IMG/VR virus record: IMGVR_UViG_3300008255_000103
Span: 118,880 to 138,879 of that record
Strand: one strand, 5' to 3'
DNA from: an uncultured virus (IMG/VR IMGVR_UViG_3300008255_000103)
Taxonomy: Duplodnaviria > Heunggongvirae > Uroviricota > Caudoviricetes
DNA: 20,000 nucleotides
Under the pieces are notes generated by a model. The model searched no databases and was not told where the DNA came from. It saw only the letters and a program-made list of their open reading frames with translations. The position numbers and the translations under genes are program-made. This document shows, piece after piece, positions 1,175-20,000 of the stretch; within the stretch, counting starts at the first letter, position 1; the number at the start of each line of letters is the position of its first letter.

Positions 1175-3419
<2,245 letters not shown>

Positions 3420-3448: not shown

Positions 3449-4462
3449 TTAGACACCGACTACTACAGACTTACGTCCAGCAGCAACACCACGTGGGTTT
3501 ACGATTGCGATTCCGATGATTTCGGAAACAACCCAACCTAGCTTCAATTGCTTTGGTTCATCAGCTGGCAAGACTTCAATGTCTTGACGGATAGGCATAA
3601 CACCTACGAATTCAGGATCAGCAGCGCCATAAATTGTTCCAGGTGGAACGATCTTGGAAACCATAATATCAGTTCCCCAAATGTGTGCATATAGACCGGT
3701 TTGTAGAACTTCTCTCATTGTGACGGGATCGAAATCTCCGCCGCCTGTGCCCTGTCCACCGCCTGCTCCCCACTTAAGGATATCGGTGAATTCATTAATG
3801 TTCATGAAATACTTGGTAGTCACAAGGTCCCAGCGGTCGATCTGTTGCTTGATTTCAACAAGGTCTCTCTTCAAAAGACCAGCGTCAGCGATGTCAGTCA
3901 ATGTATTTTCGACAGAGGCTGCTGCATCTAATGCTGCGAATACGTTTGCGTCTTCTTGTGCCATCATTTCCTGGCGAGCCTTTTGGACTGCACGGTCAAT
4001 GACGTTGAATCTACGACGCTTTACTTCAGCAATACGTACTGTTGGGTTTGCGTAGATTTCGAATTCAGGAACTACAACACGGTCACCGAATACACGGGAT
4101 TCTGGACCAGTACCGTTGCTGGAAATAACAACAGCGGCTACATCGATATCTCTATCGTAAGTAGGCGTTGCACCTTGTGGCAAAGGATCTACAACCAATG
4201 CTCTACGGGCAATTCCATGGTAGTCTAAGTTTCTGCGGATTGGGTTTGCCATAGCCTGAGCTAAAGCAATCTTTCCGTCTTGAGTCATAATAGCGCGGGA
4301 AATCAATTCATCGCGTCTTTCGTCACTTAATGCAGTTTGTCCAGCCATACCCATATTTGATGGTTGATTCTCTTCGAGAATAGCAGCATATTTAACAAGT
4401 GTTTGAAGGGCATCTTTGAGTGAGCTTGCATTCATTTGCCCACCATTATTAAACATATTCAT
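3449..4462 (-). CDS. Major capsid protein, HK97-type fold
   Basis: 337 aa. HK97-like order: N-arm helix (ALAQAMANPIRRNL), ARRALVVDPLP, E-loop strands, spine helix (VIDRAVQKARQEMMAQEDANVFAAL), GTDIMVSKIVPPG and terminal GIAIVNPRGV. Visibly higher GC and biased codons, GGAGA SD, strong terminator, downstream of a decoration-like gene. Confidence 0.85.
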   Translation of the reverse strand: MNMFNNGGQMNASSLKDALQTLVKYAAILEENQPSNMGMAGQTALSDERRDELISRAIMTQDGKIALAQAMANPIRRNLDYHGIARRALVVDPLPQGATPTYDRDIDVAAVVISSNGTGPESRVFGDRVVVPEFEIYANPTVRIAEVKRRRFNVIDRAVQKARQEMMAQEDANVFAALDAAASVENTLTDIADAGLLKRDLVEIKQQIDRWDLVTTKYFMNINEFTDILKWGAGGGQGTGGGDFDPVTMREVLQTGLYAHIWGTDIMVSKIVPPGTIYGAADPEFVGVMPIRQDIEVLPADEPKQLKLGWVVSEIIGIAIVNPRGVAAGRKSVVVGV

Positions 4463-4468
4463 ATGTTA

Positions 4469-4524
4469 TCTCCACAATTAAAGGAATTGTTTGCCAATTT
4501 CTTAGCAATACACATTATGTGTAT
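4469..4524 (-). promoter_or_regulatory. Structured 5' leader and RBS of the capsid gene (three adjacent hairpins)
   Basis: On the minus strand: ATACACA-TAA-TGTGTAT, TTGCTAA-GAAA-TTGGCAA and ACAATT-CCTTT-AATTGT, immediately followed by GGAGA and ATG. Confidence 0.55.
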
Positions 4525-4625
4525 GATAAAATATGATAATATTAGCTTTTTTAGAAAAAAAAAATACTGCACTTACTATACATATTATGATATAGTATAA
4601 TCTGCATCTTAATTTGGAAATAATT

Positions 4626-5765
4626 ATGAATTTAATTGGTAAAAAATTTAATAAATTAACAGTAATATCTAAGGCTGATAGTATTTTAGGCGGACAAAAA
4701 ATAAAAAGATATTGGGGTGCATGGAATTGTCAATGTGATTGTGGAAATGTAATTATTGTAAAAACTATTGATTTAAATAGAGGTAGTGTTAAGTCTTGTG
4801 GATGTTTGTATAAATTACACGGCAAATCATATAAACCAGGACAAAAATTTAATAGGTTAACATTAATATCATATAAAAAAGGTAAATGGTTATGTTTGTG
4901 TGATTGTGGTAATCATATTGAAGTATTAACTGAAAATATAAAAAGAAATACCAAATCTTGTGGATGTTTAAAATCAGAAATATCATCAAATAATTCTATA
5001 AAATTAATATCTGGAAGGCGTAAATTTGAACCAAAAATTGCATCTGCTAGAAGAATTTGGAAAAATTATTGTTATAAAGATAAATTATGTAATATTACAT
5101 TTGAACAATTTCTAGTAATATCTAAAGAAAATTGTATTTACTGTGGCACTTCTCCAAATACTCAATATAATTATTTCAATACTTTATCAAGCAATAGTTC
5201 ACAAAAATCAAAAAATGAAGGATTATTTATTTATAACGGATTAGATCGTATTGATAATACAAAACCACATACACTAAATAATAGTGTTCCATGCTGCCAA
5301 ATATGTAATAGAGCCAAAAATAATAGGTCTGTCATTGATTTTTTATCATGGGTTAACTTATTAAAAATTAATTCATTTGAACAACTAAAAATAATTCCAA
5401 TTCAGCTACCCAAAATATCTCTATCTATAAAATGTATTTATAACTCTGGATATAATGATGGAGATTTAAAAATAGAAGAATTCTATTTTTTATCTCAACA
5501 ACAATGTTATTACTGTGGTTCCTATCCACAAAATATCTTTAATAAAGCAAAAAATGATAAAAAATCATCTCAATATGCAAAAGATAATGGTAATTTTATT
5601 TATAATGGGCTAGATCGTATTGATAATACAAAGCCACATAATAAAAATAATGTTGTACCTTGCTGTAAATACTGTAATTTTACAAAAAGCAAACTCATAT
5701 TAATAGAATTTCAAATTTGGATTAATAAAATTCAGCAATATCAAAAAGAAAAGCACGGCTATTAA
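4626..5765 (+). CDS. Free-standing HNH-type homing endonuclease with duplicated DNA-binding and nuclease domains
   Basis: Two G.KFN.LT.I...W.C.CDCGN...KSCGCL modules, then two C.YCG..P...YNGLDRIDNTKPH..N..VPCC..CN..K modules. Very AT-rich and antisense to the operon. ATG 4626 has an upstream GGA and TATAAT at 4596-4601. Confidence 0.85.
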   Translation: MNLIGKKFNKLTVISKADSILGGQKIKRYWGAWNCQCDCGNVIIVKTIDLNRGSVKSCGCLYKLHGKSYKPGQKFNRLTLISYKKGKWLCLCDCGNHIEVLTENIKRNTKSCGCLKSEISSNNSIKLISGRRKFEPKIASARRIWKNYCYKDKLCNITFEQFLVISKENCIYCGTSPNTQYNYFNTLSSNSSQKSKNEGLFIYNGLDRIDNTKPHTLNNSVPCCQICNRAKNNRSVIDFLSWVNLLKINSFEQLKIIPIQLPKISLSIKCIYNSGYNDGDLKIEEFYFLSQQQCYYCGSYPQNIFNKAKNDKKSSQYAKDNGNFIYNGLDRIDNTKPHNKNNVVPCCKYCNFTKSKLILIEFQIWINKIQQYQKEKHGY

Positions 5766-6680: not shown

Positions 6681-7958
6681 TTATAGTGCGAATTTTAGTC
6701 CACTAAGCTCTTCTTCTAATTTACTAGCCATTTCTTCTGTAGATTTTCGTACAGATTCTGGTGTTTTTTCTGGCATTGGACCTGCGCCTTCAGGAACTGT
6801 AGAAGGTTCATTTATAATAGTATTATTCTCTGTAGCAGCCTTATCAATTTGTCTTTTTGCATTTGCTTCAATACTTTTAGCACGATATAATATAATAAGT
6901 ATATATTGAAGTGATGCTTTATATGGAGGAAATGCTCTTACTATATCTTCAAAATCATTAGCAATTAATCCTTTACCACCCTCTAATATTTGTGTCTTAT
7001 CAACAAATTTGTTCAAATACCCCTTATCTTCTATTTGTTCTGCTTGATAAGTTTGTGAACTTAAATTTTCTGTAGCTTGATTTATTAATGTAGCATTTTC
7101 ATCAACTACCGTTTTAAATAGCTCATAAGACCTTATTACAATTGAACTTTCAGGCGATTTAGCTAATTGCAATAATTCACTAGCCGTTCTAGTTCTTTGT
7201 AATGTATTGATAACTGGTACAATTTTTTCATAAGTATCATAAATGTCCATTACATGTTTTCTAAGCTTTCGCATTTCTTCCAAAAAATTACTACTATAAG
7301 TTGTACCAGTAAATAATCCAGCCGAATCATTTAAAATATCATCAATTTCAGCAATTAATTTCTTATTGTTTCCTCTAAAACCTTCATTAATAAATGGAAG
7401 TTTCTGCTGTATATAAAGTGCTCCTAAAGTTGCAGCAATAGTTCCAGCTACTAACAAAAAGGGAAACGCAGCAGTAGAAATCAACTCAGCTTTTTTTTTT
7501 AAGCTGGCTGTTTGTTCTAAACAAACATCAGCAAGAATACGTAATTCTTCTTTGTTTTGATTATCTAAATCATTACCTAATCTAACTAACGACAATAATA
7601 ATTGCTGCTCAGCATATTTTCTTTGTGTTACATGACCATCAGGCATCTTCTGAACAATATTCATTAAAATATCTTGTCTTTCATTTAAATTCTCAACAAG
7701 ACCATTTAATTTATCATATGATGGTGAAACGACTACTGCATTTGGATGAGCATCTTCAATAATATTTCTCTTATACTCCATATCTTTAGGAGTATCTGGT
7801 TTAATACCATATAGTGCTTCAATTGCAGAAATATCTAAAGAATCAATCCTTGGATCATCCTCTAACTTCCTTCTGATTTCATCGGGATCAGCCTTTGAAA
7901 TTAAGCCCCTCTCTTGGGCAATTTTAGCAAATTCTTCAAAAATGTCGCTATGTCTCAT
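6681..7958 (-). CDS. Putative internal head/ejection protein with AHP box and a hydrophobic segment
   Basis: About 425 aa (ATG 7958 preferred over GTG 7970). Contains EDAHPNA...KMPDG, the helix LVRLGNDLDNQ and hydrophobic FPFLLVAGTIAATLGALYI after KKKA. Confidence 0.7.
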   Translation of the reverse strand: MRHSDIFEEFAKIAQERGLISKADPDEIRRKLEDDPRIDSLDISAIEALYGIKPDTPKDMEYKRNIIEDAHPNAVVVSPSYDKLNGLVENLNERQDILMNIVQKMPDGHVTQRKYAEQQLLLSLVRLGNDLDNQNKEELRILADVCLEQTASLKKKAELISTAAFPFLLVAGTIAATLGALYIQQKLPFINEGFRGNNKKLIAEIDDILNDSAGLFTGTTYSSNFLEEMRKLRKHVMDIYDTYEKIVPVINTLQRTRTASELLQLAKSPESSIVIRSYELFKTVVDENATLINQATENLSSQTYQAEQIEDKGYLNKFVDKTQILEGGKGLIANDFEDIVRAFPPYKASLQYILIILYRAKSIEANAKRQIDKAATENNTIINEPSTVPEGAGPMPEKTPESVRKSTEEMASKLEEELSGLKFAL

Positions 7959-8010
7959 TATTTGGCTCACAGTGGGGGTAATTTATTTATATGCTTTCAT
8001 ATGCCGTTGA

Positions 8011-12133: not shown

Positions 12134-13399
12134 TTATTTTGCATAACCGGGACTAGTTAATGTTGCATAATCATCATTATTTTCGGCAATTACTGTATTA
12201 ACTTTTGCTCTAAAACTTGTTAAATTTTGTGCAGCTAATTTATCTTTAAGTTCTGTTGAAAATAATGCTGATATTTGATTTGGATGCATTATTCTTAATT
12301 CAGCACCTTGTGATTTATTAAGTTTAGCAATCACTCTATGTATATCTGAATTTTCTAAACCAATATTTTCAATCCATGTTGAAACAGCAATACGATATTT
12401 ATCATTTATATTATTTAGATCTATTTGACTTACTTTTTGAGATAAGTCTTCATAGTGTAATCTTAATGGGGTTAAAGCCTCTATAATATCTCCGAATGGA
12501 ATTTGTTGTTCTTGAAATATTGCTGATTGTTGTCTACCAACTCTAAATGCTTGATTTGCTGCCCAAATAAGAGAAATTCCTCTATCTATTTGAGCTATTG
12601 CATTAAAAGCCGTTCTTTTATCTTGTTCTGCAACATTAAATGAATTAAAATTAAGTTTTACAAAAGCGTCTCTTTTAATTCTAACCTGATGAATATAGTT
12701 AAAAACTATATTCATTTTATATTGGTCTATCTTAACATCAGAATCTGCTTCTTTCTTAAAATTTGCAATATCTTTGTTTATTTGTTTAAGATCATCAATA
12801 TAGTTAGATGCAATTCCTGATGGCAAAAAATTTGGTAAAACAGTTATTAAACTATTTGCTCCAGCAGATATATTTTCATACCCTTTACTAAGATAGTCTT
12901 TTCCAAGTAATTGTTTTCTAGAATCATCAATATCTATTGGTAATTCTTCGCCTAAAGAAGTCTTAACGGCATTAATTATACTTTTAGCATTAGATAACTT
13001 ACCAGTAGGCATTTTCTCAACTACTCTCATCATTGCTAAATGTTCATCTATAATTGTTTCAATAACTGCATCACCAGCAACACCCTCTAAAAATGGGCTT
13101 CCTTTTGGATGAGCATCTTGAATTAATTTATTATCACATTCAGAAGCAGCAGCTTGTTTATATTGAATGAAGGTTAATTCTAATTCTTCAGCATATTTTT
13201 CCATACCAGAGGCTCGTAGACCGCTACATAATTTCATAAGATTTTCTGACAAATTTTCTGTTGGTCTCAAATCTAATTTTGGTTTTCTTGAAGCTATCTT
13301 TTTTAATGGATCCTCTTTCACTAATCCCTTTTCTTTAGCTAATTTTACTAAAGAACGCATTGTCTCAGAATCTTCAAAATTTATATGCTTAAAAGTCAT
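12134..13399 (-). CDS. Putative internal head protein with AHP box (N-terminal region paralogous to 6681-7958)
   Basis: 421 aa with GAGG SD. Contains LVKLAKEKGLV, LMKLCSGLRASGMEKYAEEL and QDAHPKG...KMPTG. Confidence 0.72.
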   Translation of the reverse strand: MTFKHINFEDSETMRSLVKLAKEKGLVKEDPLKKIASRKPKLDLRPTENLSENLMKLCSGLRASGMEKYAEELELTFIQYKQAAASECDNKLIQDAHPKGSPFLEGVAGDAVIETIIDEHLAMMRVVEKMPTGKLSNAKSIINAVKTSLGEELPIDIDDSRKQLLGKDYLSKGYENISAGANSLITVLPNFLPSGIASNYIDDLKQINKDIANFKKEADSDVKIDQYKMNIVFNYIHQVRIKRDAFVKLNFNSFNVAEQDKRTAFNAIAQIDRGISLIWAANQAFRVGRQQSAIFQEQQIPFGDIIEALTPLRLHYEDLSQKVSQIDLNNINDKYRIAVSTWIENIGLENSDIHRVIAKLNKSQGAELRIMHPNQISALFSTELKDKLAAQNLTSFRAKVNTVIAENNDDYATLTSPGYAK

Positions 13400-13479: not shown

Positions 13480-14262
13480 TTACTGTTTTATTGTATCAAG
13501 ACGTCCATATCTTAACATACGCAGACCGTGCTTGTTACAATACCTTATACCATCAATAATCTTATATTTCGCCTTGCCACAAATATTACAACCAGGAACA
13601 CTGCACTTTATATCTGTATAATCAATTCGCCTTTTCCAAGCATCAATAGCACTTATAGATTTATTTTTCTTTGTATTCTCAGAATCTTTGTGCCCTATAT
13701 GAACTTCAGACATATGCTTTCTTACTTCCTGTGTATAAATAGATTCATTATCTTTAGATTTCTGAATCATACTCATATTGGCTTTCTGTTCTGCAGTACG
13801 TTTAGTTCCTAATGCAGGATGTCCTTGTGTAGCAATTTGTTTTATTGTTGCTTCTCTTTGTTGCTGTTTGATTTTTTCTTTTTCTTCAATAGATAATGAC
13901 GCATGCCAATCTCTCATCATTTTCTTAAACTTATCAGATTTAGGGGCATTCATTCCACCATAGGTAACATTATAGCCAGTATTAAACTGTATATATGTAT
14001 TATACTGTTTTACTAATTCCGTTTCAAGATAGTTTGCATCATCTTGCGATTTACAAGAAGCTATTATTTCAAATTTGAAATTATCAATTCCATATTTTAA
14101 GAAAGCAAAATGAATAGCTTGACTTGGCTTATTTTTATAAAAAGCTCTACGATGATCGGAAAATCTTTTAGCGATATTAGTTGTTTGACCAATATATTTT
14201 TTGTCATTAACTGCATTTGTGATTATGTAAAGTGACCATATTTTCTGTATATGTTGCGCCAT
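13480..14262 (-). CDS. Free-standing GIY-YIG homing endonuclease with NUMOD3-like repeats
   Basis: SLYIITN...KKYIGQT...RF..H, FKFEII, catalytic-position E (YLETEL) and GYNVTYGG. NUMOD3-like G.K.(T/S).E.K...S repeats, a C-terminal C..PGC...CNKH zinc motif and GGAGGT SD. Confidence 0.9.
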   Translation of the reverse strand: MAQHIQKIWSLYIITNAVNDKKYIGQTTNIAKRFSDHRRAFYKNKPSQAIHFAFLKYGIDNFKFEIIASCKSQDDANYLETELVKQYNTYIQFNTGYNVTYGGMNAPKSDKFKKMMRDWHASLSIEEKEKIKQQQREATIKQIATQGHPALGTKRTAEQKANMSMIQKSKDNESIYTQEVRKHMSEVHIGHKDSENTKKNKSISAIDAWKRRIDYTDIKCSVPGCNICGKAKYKIIDGIRYCNKHGLRMLRYGRLDTIKQ

Positions 14263-15061: not shown

Positions 15062-16210
15062 TTAATCGACCTCTTCTTCAAATGACATAGATGATGATGT
15101 TGGGACTTCTAATTCATCTGACATATCTGCGTCTAATAAATCATCTACAGAATTATAATCTGTAGAATTAAAAACTGTGCCATTCTCTAATAAATTCTTA
15201 ATCATTTGAGCTGAGTTTATTGAATTATTTTGAGGAGATCTAGCATCTTGCTTATCAATCTTCTTTTCCATATCATCTAAATAATCATAATAATTTGGAT
15301 TTTCTGTCAAATGATCCATAGTTATTTCTGTAGCTACATGTTTATCATTTGTGTGTTCCATTTCAACTTTGATACCTTTAGCTAAAGCTTTTGGATCAAA
15401 ATCTTCAGGCTTTTTCTTGTCAGCTAAACCACCGGGAATTTCATCTTCCCAAAGAGCATCTTCTGCCATCTTGTATAAAACACCCATAATTTGATCTGCT
15501 TGGCTTTGCATTCCAGCATCTTCAAAAATATCAATGGCACTATTCAAATAATCAACAGCTTTTGATACAGAAATACCTTCTTCTTGACCACTCAATATCT
15601 TAAACATTGAATCTTCAATTGTACTTGCAGTTGCATTTGGATTAGCGTTTGAATTTGTATTTGTATACATGTTTGCACCCATATTTACATTTACATTTGG
15701 ATTTACATTTAGATTTTTATTTGACAACGAACTTATCCTTTGTTTAACTGCAACCGCATCTTTAGGACTGGTGCTTAAATATTGCTTAAGTAACGATATA
15801 GCAGCAATATTATTGCCGAGTTTTTGATAATTAATAGCCGCATTATATAAACATATGCTTACTGGTTTACCTCTGTAAGCCGCTAAATAAGCCCTTGCCG
15901 ACTCGTCATATTTGCCTTGAGTATAAAAATTACCACCACGAGTAAATTCAATTGAATATAACTGTTCCTTTGCATTAGAATCGTTTGGATTCACTGTTAA
16001 AACTCTATTAATTAATGAAAGCGCTGCATCAAAATTATTAAGCTTTTTATAACATATTGTTTGATTATATAGATAAGCAGAACGATGATCTATCTCAAAA
16101 GCTTTAGCCCAATATTTTGCTGCATTTGTATAATCTTTTTGCGAAAATAACTCAGCAGCTTTATCACTAAATTGCTTAGAATGTTGCTGCGTATAGGGAC
16201 TACTTGGCAT
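15062..16210 (-). CDS. TPR-repeat protein fused to a DUF5661-like domain
   Basis: Two TPR pairs (F...DY..AA..W..AF...YLYN...CY..L; FY..G.Y..SA..Y..AY...LYN.A..Y..LG), an Asn-rich linker and the shared head helix. Then IPGGLAD...LAKGIKVEMEHT.D...A.EI.MDHL.E.PNYY, which matches the DUF5661 pattern as I recall it. Confidence 0.75.
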   Translation of the reverse strand: MPSSPYTQQHSKQFSDKAAELFSQKDYTNAAKYWAKAFEIDHRSAYLYNQTICYKKLNNFDAALSLINRVLTVNPNDSNAKEQLYSIEFTRGGNFYTQGKYDESARAYLAAYRGKPVSICLYNAAINYQKLGNNIAAISLLKQYLSTSPKDAVAVKQRISSLSNKNLNVNPNVNVNMGANMYTNTNSNANPNATASTIEDSMFKILSGQEEGISVSKAVDYLNSAIDIFEDAGMQSQADQIMGVLYKMAEDALWEDEIPGGLADKKKPEDFDPKALAKGIKVEMEHTNDKHVATEITMDHLTENPNYYDYLDDMEKKIDKQDARSPQNNSINSAQMIKNLLENGTVFNSTDYNSVDDLLDADMSDELEVPTSSSMSFEEEVD

Positions 16211-16778: not shown

Positions 16779-17462
16779 TTACTTATTTTTCTTAGCAAAT
16801 GGATTTGTTTTTCCAGATTTGCCAGTGTCTTTTCCTTTAACAGCAGGTTTCTTGGTTGACTGAGTTGACTTAGTTGACTTTGGTTTATCTGTTGACTTTG
16901 GCTTATCTTTTGCAGCATTAGAATCTGTCTTCTTCGTGCTTTTCTTGGTATCTTTCTTAGTATCTTTCTTGGTATCTTTCTTACCCTTAGCACTAGAGTC
17001 TTTCTTGCCTTTTGTATCTTTACTCTTAGCAGTTTCTTTCTTGGCTGCTAGAACTAAAGATGCTAATTTTAGACTTACAGTTGAGCTTTTTTCTAAGCCT
17101 ACAGAATCTAAAGCGGCTGATGCTGTAAGTAGACTATCAATTGCAACGTCGTAATTAGCAGAAACATCATACAATCCTGCATTTAGATCGTCAGCACTAT
17201 CGCTGTCACCAGCTTCATCTTCTTCATCTACATCTGCATCATTGTCATCTACTTCGATGTCATCTGCACAAGAAGTGTCTTTCATTTCGTCATCGTCGTC
17301 ATCAGCACTACAGCTATCTTCTTCATCTTTTTCCATAGTACTTGCATCATTTTCATCTGAAGCAAATTTATATGTAGTGTTAAACAAAGAATTGTGTTCT
17401 TGGCTTTTTAATACTGCATCCATTGTTGCAGCTACAAAATCTGATACACTTTTATTATTCAT
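16779..17462 (-). CDS. Bipartite acidic / Lys-rich (histone H1-like tail) protein
   Basis: 227 aa with AGAGGA SD. An Asp/Glu-rich block follows YKFA, then the shared helix, then about 85 aa of K/T/S/D repeats (KKDT x3, DKPKST x2). Confidence 0.8.
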   Translation of the reverse strand: MNNKSVSDFVAATMDAVLKSQEHNSLFNTTYKFASDENDASTMEKDEEDSCSADDDDDEMKDTSCADDIEVDDNDADVDEEDEAGDSDSADDLNAGLYDVSANYDVAIDSLLTASAALDSVGLEKSSTVSLKLASLVLAAKKETAKSKDTKGKKDSSAKGKKDTKKDTKKDTKKSTKKTDSNAAKDKPKSTDKPKSTKSTQSTKKPAVKGKDTGKSGKTNPFAKKNK

Positions 17463-17487: not shown

Positions 17488-20000
17488 TTAGAACGACCCT
17501 TTGGAAGTCTTAGATAGTGCTGCTGACAATTGAGCAACTAAATTTTCATCGTTAGAACTTGCTGGGGCGAATTCTCCAGATCCAATCATTCCGACTTGTG
17601 GTATATGTCCAGCTTCCTTACGAAGTACTGGTGTATGCTTTGCAACAACTCTCTTAAGAGAATCAAAGCTATCATCATTAAACTTCATAATTTCATCAAC
17701 CTGAAAAGAAACGGCTTGTCTATCATTATGACACAAACCACGATCTACCATGTCATAAGCAAGTTCATAAGCTCTTGCCATTTTCACACGATACTTGTTA
17801 AGTTCTGCTTCCATTTCTGCCTTAACATGTTCCTTTACAAGTTCGCTTGCGAATTCAGATCCACCGTCAACCTGTCCCCAGTATTTCTTATAATAAGAAA
17901 CTGCGTCCTTGTCTAAACCTTCTACAATTAATGCGTCTAGGTCTGCCGGATCTAATTTACCTTCGCTAACTAATCTATGAATAGCTTCTGCTTCTTTACG
18001 AACCTTTGGAGGTGCATTAGCAAGATCTAACATTGCTTTTTGAGTTTCCTCTAATCCTTCAATAGTTCCTAAATTACCAGATGGTTTTACATCAAGTTGA
18101 GTTGTAGCATTTCCCTTTGGATGTGCTTCATGTAGATGAGGGCTGGTCTTCATTGCTTCTGCAGCTAACTTAGCGCGCATTGCAGATCTACCTTCTAATG
18201 AATTAAAGCTGGCTAATTCTACTTCTGCATTAGGATCTTTTTGAACGATTTCAGCAGCCATTTCTGGATCATCTGTCTTAACTGCATCATTATCGTCAAC
18301 TTCACCAGTATCACCTAAGCCAAGAATATCCATTAGATCTGTGGTATCTTCGCCTTCGCCTTCGTCACCACCCAATAATTCTTCTATACTAGCATCTGAT
18401 CCTTCTTCTTCTAAAGAAAGATCATCTCCAGAATCAACATCTTCAATCATGTCACTAACTTCATCTAAAGCATTATCTGTATCAGTGATTAGAGCAGATA
18501 AATCATCTACAGAATCTAGATCTATATCTGTTACACCCATAGTATTATCTCCTTCAGCGGCTAATGATTCAAGTTCTGCCTCGATTTCAGCGCGCTTTAC
18601 TATAGCTTCTGTACCACGAGCGTATTTAACAAAAGCTGTCATTAATTTAAATCCATCAGCAACAGCTGTCTTGGCTTCAGTTAACGCGTCTTCTATGATA
18701 GAGCCAACAAATTCCTTATTAGAGGCAGTGACCGCGCCCTTATCATACATACCTGCAATCATCATTAATTCTTGTTGATGATCTTGAAGTTCTGCAACTG
18801 ATTCTTTCATTGCATTTGTTAATGCACCATTAAGTTCTTTTCTTAATGTATTAAGAGTTCTTGTTTCAGATGCGGCGGCACCCATTTCTGGGGCTCCCAT
18901 TTCTGAAGCAGCTTCGCCACCCATTTCATTTTGTTCTCCGGTTAATGCTCTAACAGCTTCAACTAAATCGGAGCTAAGATCTCTAACTTTTTCAGCTAAT
19001 TCTAATGCAGTTTCTTTTGGATCGCCAGATTTGCCGGTGTCTTCAGCTTCACCTTCTGGGGCTGCATCCATTGGTTCTGCAGGGGGTGCAGGAGGTGCAG
19101 GTGGTGCTACTTGTGCTCCCTTTACAAGAGCGCGAACTTTATCGGCACCAAAAGATTTAACATTTTCAATAAGTTTGGCTCCAAATGCTTTAGTTGCAAT
19201 ATTGTTGTATAATGTATCAGTTCTATTTCCAGATAATTCATCAACAGATGCTGTCAATAGCAATTTGTCTCCCAAGAATACTTCCCAACCACTCTTGCCA
19301 TAGTTTTGTGTTCCGTCAGCATTAGATGCTTTTTGAAAACGTGCTCTTAGAGATGCTCTCTGGATCATTTCCTTACGCTTCTCTTCATCATTTACTTTGA
19401 CAGATGCTGGACTTGGATGCATTCCATCAACTGGTCCTACGCCTGGGAATGGTTTTTGACCATTCATATGTTTATCACCGCTACCACGAAGTTGCTCATT
19501 CATCTTATCTGGTGCATATTTTGTTTTACCTGGAGTTGGCTCTTGTGGATTCTTATCACCCTGTTGGAAGTATGCTTCTTTCTTTTGTTCCAATGCTTGT
19601 TTAGCTAAGTTTACAACCGCATTACGACGCATTGCGCGTTCCTCGGCATCAGCGCGAGCAAGCATCTTCTTGCGCTCTAAATCTCCGGGGTATAATTGTT
19701 CTGGACTGCCCATATTATCGACATCCATTTGCTTATCTCCATCAGTTCTCAACTTTTCATTCATTGGGTCTTTTGGATACTTTGGCTTACCTGGGCTTGG
19801 CTCGTTTTCATTGCCAGCACCTTGAAAATAACCTTGTTTATTAATATTTGATCCAGACATATTTTCCTCTTGTGTACTTGTGGAAGTGTTTGCTAACTTA
19901 TCTAAGCTTGTTTTCATTTGATTTAACTTAGTCTCTATAGACGCCGTAACTACTCTAAGCTCAGAAACTAGGTCTGCTTCCACATTAGTAGAAGCATATC
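17488..20000 (-). CDS. Large capsid scaffold-like protein, possibly the C-terminal part of a protease-scaffold gene (N-terminus beyond the right edge)
   Basis: The frame stays open upstream of GTG 19983 to the edge (..YASTNVEAD). Coiled-coil, acidic and Pro-rich segments, many K-x-A sites, an AHP box and a short C-terminal helix (LVAQLSAALSK). Lies upstream of the decoration and MCP genes. Confidence 0.65.
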   Translation of the reverse strand, partial: YASTNVEADLVSELRVVTASIETKLNQMKTSLDKLANTSTSTQEENMSGSNINKQGYFQGAGNENEPSPGKPKYPKDPMNEKLRTDGDKQMDVDNMGSPEQLYPGDLERKKMLARADAEERAMRRNAVVNLAKQALEQKKEAYFQQGDKNPQEPTPGKTKYAPDKMNEQLRGSGDKHMNGQKPFPGVGPVDGMHPSPASVKVNDEEKRKEMIQRASLRARFQKASNADGTQNYGKSGWEVFLGDKLLLTASVDELSGNRTDTLYNNIATKAFGAKLIENVKSFGADKVRALVKGAQVAPPAPPAPPAEPMDAAPEGEAEDTGKSGDPKETALELAEKVRDLSSDLVEAVRALTGEQNEMGGEAASEMGAPEMGAAASETRTLNTLRKELNGALTNAMKESVAELQDHQQELMMIAGMYDKGAVTASNKEFVGSIIEDALTEAKTAVADGFKLMTAFVKYARGTEAIVKRAEIEAELESLAAEGDNTMGVTDIDLDSVDDLSALITDTDNALDEVSDMIEDVDSGDDLSLEEEGSDASIEELLGGDEGEGEDTTDLMDILGLGDTGEVDDNDAVKTDDPEMAAEIVQKDPNAEVELASFNSLEGRSAMRAKLAAEAMKTSPHLHEAHPKGNATTQLDVKPSGNLGTIEGLEETQKAMLDLANAPPKVRKEAEAIHRLVSEGKLDPADLDALIVEGLDKDAVSYYKKYWGQVDGGSEFASELVKEHVKAEMEAELNKYRVKMARAYELAYDMVDRGLCHNDRQAVSFQVDEIMKFNDDSFDSLKRVVAKHTPVLRKEAGHIPQVGMIGSGEFAPASSNDENLVAQLSAALSKTSKGSF

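Follow-up and report, generated by a model that had tools for sequence, protein, structure and literature searches.

How many proteins are read from a single phage gene is the question raised by the minus-strand open reading frame (ORF) 17488..>20000, which runs off the end of an uncultured virus contig (IMG/VR record IMGVR_UViG_3300008255_000103). The window analyzed here, a stretch of 20,000 nucleotides (nt), is the final 20 kb of this 138,879-bp viral contig, which is rated 32% complete. An initial annotation, made from the letters of the window, described two in-frame internal ATG codons in this ORF, each behind a Shine–Dalgarno (SD) site, and proposed up to three co-terminal products. Nested protease/scaffold genes allow tailed phages and herpesviruses to set the ratio between a rare enzyme and an abundant assembly protein and to co-target both. 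On the strength of the comparison with relatives described below, the ORF is probably part of a lambda C/Nu3-like nested protease/scaffold gene, from which proteins of 1189, 790 and 350 amino acids (aa) with a common C-terminus would be made.

A Predicted Protease Gene Truncated at the Contig Edge

The frame is free of stop codons through position 20000, as the initial annotation had noted, and since the contig terminates at the window edge, the ORF is truncated on its 5′ side and the record cannot be extended. Among the sequencing runs listed as containing this stretch, one DNA run covers most of it and may be the source sample, the others cover small shares, and none is an RNA run. A protein search identified P0002, a 1189-aa protein encoded on a 444,127-bp contig, which differs from the 836 residues of the window at a single position (V/A in LDALI-EGL) and continues 353 residues upstream. 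The same search returned hundreds of relatives of 1150–1250 aa, many of them on 350–500 kb contigs, and 17 full-length IMG/VR loci keep the same frame and have a conserved N-terminus (MFIK.GE). Thus, about 353 codons are absent from the window record, which holds the C-terminal 836 codons and the stop codon (17488–17490) of a putative prohead protease-scaffold gene of 1189 codons (17488..20000, minus strand). The alternative that the initial annotation had kept in view, a stop codon just past 20000, is not what P0002 and the 17 full-length relatives have; all of them read on upstream.

The 836-aa part encoded in the window matched no family in Pfam, PHROGs or NCBIfam scans. A prohead-protease domain, for which the initial annotation had suggested looking, was found in the 353 added residues: two PHROGs, phrog_18299 (“head maturation protease,” E 4.4e-14) and phrog_2774 (E 1.4e-14), match residues 105–215 of the full protein, and residues 127–245 align with the protease portion of NCBIfam NF045541 (E 6.5e-8; “prohead protease/major capsid protein fusion protein”). 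As the NF045541 model describes a protease–capsid fusion, the score of 31.6 bits falls well short of its cut-off of 525 for the whole protein. Gp19 of Bacillus phage G aligns with the N-terminal domain at 33% identity over residues 34–238, with an hhalign probability of 99.6%, and weaker tblastn matches were obtained to annotated prohead protease genes of Rhodococcus phage E3 and Erwinia jumbo phages. Pfam returned sub-threshold noise alone for the full protein, and sequence and profile searches of the PDB came back empty.

Mean column identity is 84% in the N-terminal domain versus 60% in the remainder of the protein. Among 16 sequences, His132 (in DHK), His139 and Ser183 (in VSMG) do not vary, and no triplet in the gene is more codon-conserved than DHK. 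These are candidate catalytic residues by analogy with T4 gp21; in a non-significant hhalign alignment with that protein (probability 0.65%), the DHK His is paired with a T4 His, and VSM with VSS of T4. Judged by homology, the window ORF is the 3′ two-thirds of a head-maturation protease gene resembling phage G gp19. In P0002 and the 17 full-length loci, the protease domain and a long C-terminal extension stand in one unbroken frame, of which the window holds the extension alone. The gene is located in the head module: the major capsid gene shares its strand and follows 13 kb further along in the direction of transcription.

Past the putative catalytic Ser, but still within the protease domain (L002:3912-4736), there is an invariant Cys-x2-4-Cys ... 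Cys-x-His cluster (C193, C198, C209, H211). The cluster also occurs in phage G gp19 (L037:7875-8777) and may be a zinc-binding insert, which would be unusual among prohead proteases. In one locus (L026:4180-5295, on the same contig as L068), a 372-aa intein sits within the protease domain, between PYKN and (S->C)NGDIF, and carries a LAGLIDADG homing endonuclease (PF14528, E 1.8e-14) together with Hint/intein splicing domains. Many of the family members of about 1500–1585 aa in the representative search may hold the same intein.

Two Putative Internal Start Sites

Both internal ATG codons described in the initial annotation were found exactly where it had placed them, and both share the frame of the ORF. 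At site 1, CAAGAGGAAAAT is followed by an ATG at 19860–19858 (19858..19860, minus strand), which is Met400 of the full protein and would begin a product of 790 aa. At site 2, GAAGGAGATAATACT is followed by an ATG at 18540–18538 (18538..18540, minus strand), which is Met840 and would begin an acidic product of 350 aa. The likeness to real genes drawn in the same annotation also stands: the SD–ATG at 17462 (AGAGGATACT-ATG) opens the next gene, and the gene starts of the window, as well as the gene’s own start in relatives, share the SD types of the two internal sites.

For a count across all ATG codons, an SD core was defined as GGAG, GAGG or AGGA, 4–10 nt upstream of the ATG. Such a core precedes 5 of the 32 in-frame ATGs in the window ORF, and SD–ATG pairs in a single sequence are not beyond chance; it is conservation in relatives that raises the two named sites above it. 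The comparison set consisted of 35 loci plus the window, reduced to 29 sequences less than 97% identical, with pairwise nucleotide identities of 0.51–0.88 (median 0.65). Across these 29 non-redundant orthologues, an SD core precedes 78 of the 898 ATGs that are in frame and 64 of the 1582 that are not. Sites 1 and 2 account for 43 of the 78 SD-led in-frame ATGs (20/21 sequences at site 1 and 23/28 at site 2). The next-best ATG column reaches 10/22, with upstream bases that vary synonymously (GGA/GGT/GGC/GGG), and the remaining columns do not exceed 4/28. Several further candidates were examined as extra starts and rejected: the SD–ATG pairs at 19728, 19632 and 18885 are unconserved and have synonymously varying upstream bases, and the bases upstream of Met columns 1179, 1206, 1564 and 1756 likewise vary synonymously.

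The SD-like element of site 1, GAGGAA (19864..19869, minus strand), encodes Glu-Glu and lies 4 nt (AAAT) ahead of the ATG. All 28 covering sequences have the Met, and GAGGAA precedes it in 27 of them, the exception being L034, which has AGGGAT. Of 20 sequences, 18 use GAG for the first Glu, against a background of 22%; no other of 34 conserved Glu columns has so high a value. The other two sequences (L026 and L027) have an intact GAGGAA shifted one codon upstream. In the same 21 sequences, the third base varies in 29 of 31 invariant Glu/Lys/Gln columns; thus, synonymous sites are well mixed at this depth. When 1061 three-codon windows are ranked by exact-codon conservation, those of site 1 stand at 12–13, next to active-site-like motifs such as DHK, and the residues directly upstream form a variable linker. 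Furthermore, the messenger RNA (mRNA) from −25 to +20 around the site 1 ATG folds less stably than the gene average in 21/21 sequences (mean z +1.4).

A second scan of viral contigs, in which distinct 180-nt haplotypes were collected, gave a similar picture. Among 57 haplotypes for site 1, GAGGAA is present in 55 and an SD core at 4–10 nt in 56; the single haplotype lacking the core is that of L034, in which the Met-picking rule chose the wrong Met. By the same rule, three further loci lack the site 1 Met, and one of them, L042, does show QEENMSGS in its peptide. A crude pattern search of full-length members found a Met 4–12 residues ahead of the Y[YF]xG module described below in 113 of 116 close and 85 of 98 distant members. 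With an in-frame start and ribosome-binding site (RBS) conserved downstream of the protease domain in 55–56 of 57 haplotypes, and with synonymous-site constraint, site 1 is family-wide as judged by these comparisons.

The gene’s strongest excess of synonymous identity is located just upstream of site 1, at alignment columns 704–737 and 789–809 (L002 and relatives). These stretches, about 10–100 codons before site 1 (KDTNDLAF.., TDSGLA.., KLANT..), the first of which is past window position 20000, could be an extended initiation region, an RNA structure or another embedded signal.

At site 2, an ATG is present in 30 of 35 covering sequences, at codon positions that shift slightly in the alignment. 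An SD-like GGAGA stands 7 nt ahead of the ATG in the window (18548..18552, minus strand) and is found, with a spacer of 4–7 nt, in all 23 non-redundant sequences that have the ATG. Nineteen of the 23 write it as x-GGA-GAx, with Gly as GGA in 19/19 against a background of 28%. The other four write GGAGA in a different codon phase, ACG/TCG-GAG-ACx, which encodes Thr/Ser-Glu-Thr and uses codons with backgrounds of 3.7% (ACG), 2.4% (TCG) and 22% (GAG). Since GGAGA survives this change of phase and of amino acids, it is under selection at the RNA level. The same motif type is found at the gene’s own start in relatives (GGGAGATAA..ATG; caGGGAGAtaa..ATG in most of the 17) and at the start of the capsid gene in the window (GTGGAGAtaacatATG). 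A column-wise scan of synonymous identity ranked site 2 about 290 of 1049 and left it unflagged; such a scan misses the site because the alignment shifts there, and the motif-based count was used instead. The initial annotation had named conservation of the SD–Met pairs in orthologues as a check on its proposal, and both pairs are indeed kept at the nucleotide level, beyond the need of the amino acids. It is thereby shown here, by comparison of orthologues, that both SD–ATG pairs are under selection at the nucleotide level.

The distribution of site 2 is narrower than that of site 1. In a larger set of 60 site 2 haplotypes, GGAGA is present in 53 and a properly spaced SD core is missing in 8, so that a conserved in-frame start and RBS is found in 52–53 of the 60; four further loci lack the site 2 Met. 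The ATG is absent in L026, L027, L028, L034 and L035, which are mostly the most divergent sequences (41–53% identity). Among 98 distant members, the site 2 anchor motif was found in 32, and 8 of these 32 show a Met and an upstream Gly/Glu-rich stretch. The mRNA-structure signal is also weaker at site 2 (z +0.75, positive in 19/23 and negative in 4/23). On this distribution, site 2 is clade-specific.

One explanation of these observations is that site 1 alone works and that two products are made, the protease and the 790-aa scaffold. Site 2 would then consist of an SD-like element and a Met that are confined to a clade and give rise to little or no initiation, e.g., a pause site or a by-product of Glu-Gly-Glu coding. 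Such an explanation accommodates the family-wide presence of site 1 and the lack of site 2 in 8/60 haplotypes and four further loci, as well as its few traces outside the close clade and its weaker mRNA-structure signal. However, the presence of GGAGA in 23/23 sequences, in two codon phases and with rare codons, is hard to explain without RNA-level selection, and the motif equals the type at the gene’s own start. We therefore consider a silent site 2 unlikely, albeit worth serious attention.

Predicted Products and Their Possible Function

Translation from the three starts would yield a full-length protease from Met1 (1189 aa, 129 kDa, isoelectric point (pI) 4.75), a long product from Met400 (790 aa, 85 kDa, pI 4.6) and a short product from Met840 (350 aa, 38 kDa, pI 4.3). 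Such a set of co-terminal products, as proposed in the initial annotation, is supported by the protein architecture in addition to the SD–ATG conservation. In the full protein, the protease domain (about 250 aa) is followed by a linker (about 150 aa), after which come an acidic, mostly helical extension and the conserved C-terminal domain. A structure model of the 790-aa product, of low confidence (mean predicted local distance difference test score (pLDDT) 55), contains mostly long helices, disordered linkers and one small beta/alpha domain. The earlier placement of both starts at domain boundaries is roughly right: site 1 follows the variable linker behind the protease domain, and site 2 falls within a low-confidence linker (residues 432–451 of the model), between long helices and just ahead of an acidic disordered stretch.

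Three segments of the extension can be distinguished. The first (19282..19830, minus strand) comprises two tandem modules of about 80–95 aa (YFQG..EPxPG..KYP..DK.M..PFPGVGPVDGMHPSP, then a basic helix), the halves of which are 40% identical by BLASTP (E 7e-13). The modules are proline-rich and kept in 21/21 aligned sequences and, between the two shorter products, belong to the long one alone. The second (18286..18441, minus strand) is an acidic, low-complexity stretch near the N-terminus of the short product, predicted to be disordered (pLDDT <50 at residues 474–525 of the 790-aa model). Its length and sequence differ among relatives, and Asp and Glu make up 36% of the first 110 residues after Met840. 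The third is a conserved helical C-terminal domain of 241 aa (17491..18213, minus strand), common to the three products, with a mean column identity of 71% among 28 sequences. A search with this domain returned 381 relatives at E<=1e-3; of the 150 that were listed, 98 were at least 1000 aa long. The domain is a candidate for the capsid-binding end; a predicted complex of the capsid protein and the C-terminal domain scored 0.00, which gives no answer and speaks neither for nor against binding. A representative search with the C-terminal domain for stand-alone forms yielded mostly fused proteins of 1100–1580 aa. The short matches begin at various points of the domain-bearing proteins, resemble fragments or truncated gene predictions, and thus are uninformative either way. 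A scan for sigma-70 promoters inside the gene found 6 against 6.7 expected, i.e., no enrichment of internal promoters.

Two hydrophobic-x-Lys-x-Ala/Gly motifs are conserved in the extension: LVKGA-Q, before a Pro/Ala-rich linker (19111–19125, minus strand), and LRKEA-G, near the C-terminus (17611–17625, minus strand).

A scaffold function is suggested by the fusion to a protease, the helical and acidic character of the extension and its fast evolution relative to the capsid protein. The major capsid protein is 87–96% identical in the 120 relatives listed for it, whereas the protease-scaffold proteins of relatives are mostly 55–65% identical; thus, the assembly protein evolves much faster than the shell. 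Structure searches returned little that could be named: a Foldseek search of the 790-aa model against the PDB gave no match at E<=0.001, and the VIA-align wide search gave generic helical bundles only, with a best Z of 11.2, which is under the meaningful level for helical models. In a protein atlas, the nearest named clusters were scaffold PF09306 (0.86) and T7 capsid assembly PF05396 (0.85), both below 0.9 and to be taken as leads only.

Alternatively, the internal starts might be used for products other than scaffolds, namely ejection proteins, proteins of the head interior, or a component that is retained in the virion as a core or to determine its size. The virions of phiKZ, SPN3US and other giant phages contain numerous internal proteins, and many processed head proteins of giant phages have been described. 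Significant similarity to a scaffold family was not obtained, the atlas leads being sub-threshold, and the tandem proline-rich modules and small beta domain of the long product are unlike simple helical scaffolds. On the other hand, nested scaffold genes are characterized by just such a fusion to a prohead protease with a shared C-terminus, the extension is helical, acidic and fast-evolving, as suits scaffolds, and no other scaffold candidate was recognized among the scanned neighboring genes. A non-scaffold role is thus judged to be fairly improbable. Least probable of all, with little to be expected from it, is a scheme without internal initiation, in which a single 129-kDa protease-scaffold cleaves itself and the motifs are protein-level cleavage or targeting signals: P2 gpO is described as a single autoprocessing protease-scaffold (10.64898/2026.09.13.751334), and both the site 1 amino-acid motif and the LVKGA and LRKEA motifs are conserved, but protein-level selection leaves unexplained the fixed synonymous choices (GAG, GGA, ACG/TCG), the retention of GGAGA despite the change from Glu-Gly-Glu to Thr-Glu-Thr, and the displaced but intact GAGGAA in L026/L027.

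Several points weigh against the nested protease/scaffold gene that we favor. The counts overstate the number of independent events because the sequences share descent, even though their pairwise nucleotide identity is as low as 0.51–0.88. At site 1, the peptide QEE(N/T)M is itself conserved, so the nucleotide conservation there is partly of protein-level origin; site 2 is absent from the more divergent lineages and hence is not essential to the family. The extension matched no known scaffold family in Pfam, PHROGs or structure searches. Regarding the protease, an AF2 model of residues 1–275 had a mean pLDDT of 39.4 from a shallow alignment (16 sequences, about 80% identity) and does not confirm the protease fold, and the hhalign alignment with T4 gp21 is not significant. 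The case for nested starts is so far purely comparative, and initiation at both sites, scaffold function and the relative amounts of the products are inferred.

Proposed Mechanism and Significance

In the nested scheme, one late mRNA would carry three initiation sites and give rise to three proteins with a common C-terminus. Besides starting at Met1, ribosomes would also start at Met400 and Met840 by means of the two in-frame internal RBSs. By analogy with lambda C/Nu3, Mu I/Z, herpesvirus UL26/UL26.5 and HFTV1 gp17/gp17.5, the shorter, protease-free forms would serve as the abundant assembly scaffold. The shared C-terminal domain would carry a few protease molecules into the procapsid beside the scaffold forms, which the protease would later digest.

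A more elaborate idea, which is speculative and which we regard as improbable, is that a very large capsid is assembled on a graded core made of all three co-terminal products and that the isoform set, instead of one scaffold, is the size-determining device in phage G-like megaphages. Three RBS strengths would then fix the proportions of protease, long scaffold and short scaffold. The tandem proline-rich modules and beta domain of the long form might reach a second partner, such as the portal, an inner core or cargo, and gain or loss of the second start in different lineages might tune head size or the loading of internal proteins.

The principle of nested protease/scaffold genes is already known; the new part is the presence of two conserved putative nested starts in a megaphage gene of about 1200 codons. 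A full-text literature search found the nested scheme for lambda, HSV-1 (herpes simplex virus 1) and HFTV1 and nothing on this gene family or phage G gp19. The family is sizable, with at least 381 relatives, many of them on 350–500 kb contigs. Gene callers give a single “hypothetical protein” for such genes, by which two probable products are overlooked. The extension is also a likely scaffold candidate for phage G-like megaphages, which have no scaffold family match, and the lineages with and without the second start offer a natural comparison for studying the sizing of very large capsids.

Neighboring Genes in the Window

The major capsid protein gene (3449..4462, minus strand; phrog_2522, “major head protein,” E 5e-78) is located 13 kb downstream of the ORF. 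Directly downstream of it, a collagen-repeat protein (2340–3374, minus strand) has PHROG tail-fibre matches and a weak match to the BclA C-terminal domain (24 bits versus a Pfam cut-off of 38); it could be a head fibre or decoration protein rather than a tail part. Two homing endonucleases are encoded within the head-gene block, one of the GIY-YIG type (13480–14262, minus strand; PF01541, phrog_314) and one HNH/endonuclease VII-like (4614–5765, plus strand; phrog_374, phrog_1035). The same block contains a 382-aa protein with TPR repeats and DUF5661 (15062–16210, minus strand). A tRNA nucleotidyltransferase of the CCA-adding enzyme family is encoded at 1175–2419 (plus strand; PF01743, phrog_2244, E 1e-69). 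When a profile of the C-terminal domain was compared with 16 proteins, marginal matches were obtained to two unannotated proteins at 6681–7970 and 12134–13399 (both minus strand; E 0.005 and 0.15). These matches reflect a short V-E-x-L-x-E...M...P segment and are too weak to support a claim.

Comparison With Known Systems

The closest parallel is the lambda C/Nu3 pair, in which a protease gene (C, 4418–5737) contains an in-frame internal start that gives a co-terminal scaffold (nu3, annotated “capsid assembly protein,” 5132–5737). Lambda C differs in being an annotated S49 peptidase, i.e., a protease of another family, of 439 aa with one nested start, whereas the present gene encodes 1189 aa with a phage G gp19-like protease and two putative nested starts. 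Phage Mu I/Z likewise makes its scaffold from an internal start in the protease gene. In HSV, UL26.5 has its own transcript. HSV UL26/UL26.5 and HFTV1 gp17/gp17.5 resemble the present case in that the full-length protein acts as the protease, and the scaffold is an in-frame product truncated at its N-terminus (10.64898/2026.09.13.751334). Each of these systems has one nested product, and here two candidate SD-led sites are recognized. For HFTV1, the nested product was shown by ribosome profiling (Ribo-seq) with an initiation inhibitor and by mass spectrometry (10.64898/2026.09.13.751334).

Other systems share single elements of the scheme. T4 gene 21 also encodes a head maturation protease with a RefSeq-annotated internal initiation that gives a smaller co-terminal protein. 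However, that start is 22 codons into a 212-aa protease, so the protease domain is retained, and the scaffold gp22 is encoded by a separate gene. P2 gpO likewise combines protease and scaffold in one polypeptide; unlike the gene described here, in which nucleotide conservation points to nested starts, it is described as being made full-length and then self-cleaved, with no nested start (10.64898/2026.09.13.751334).

The closest cultivated homologue is phage G gp19, which has a homologous protease domain, including the Cys/His cluster and the DH..SMG motifs, and likewise belongs to a head module, where it is located between the portal and major capsid genes. It differs in its length of 300 aa and in its lack of the extension. 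Phage G gp20 was considered as a counterpart of the extension and gave no match. Gp21, a 486-aa protein from a separate gene two downstream of gp19, matched the C-terminal domain weakly (probability 30%, E 5e-4, 54 columns). Thus, functions that are joined in one frame in the family described here may be split between genes in phage G.

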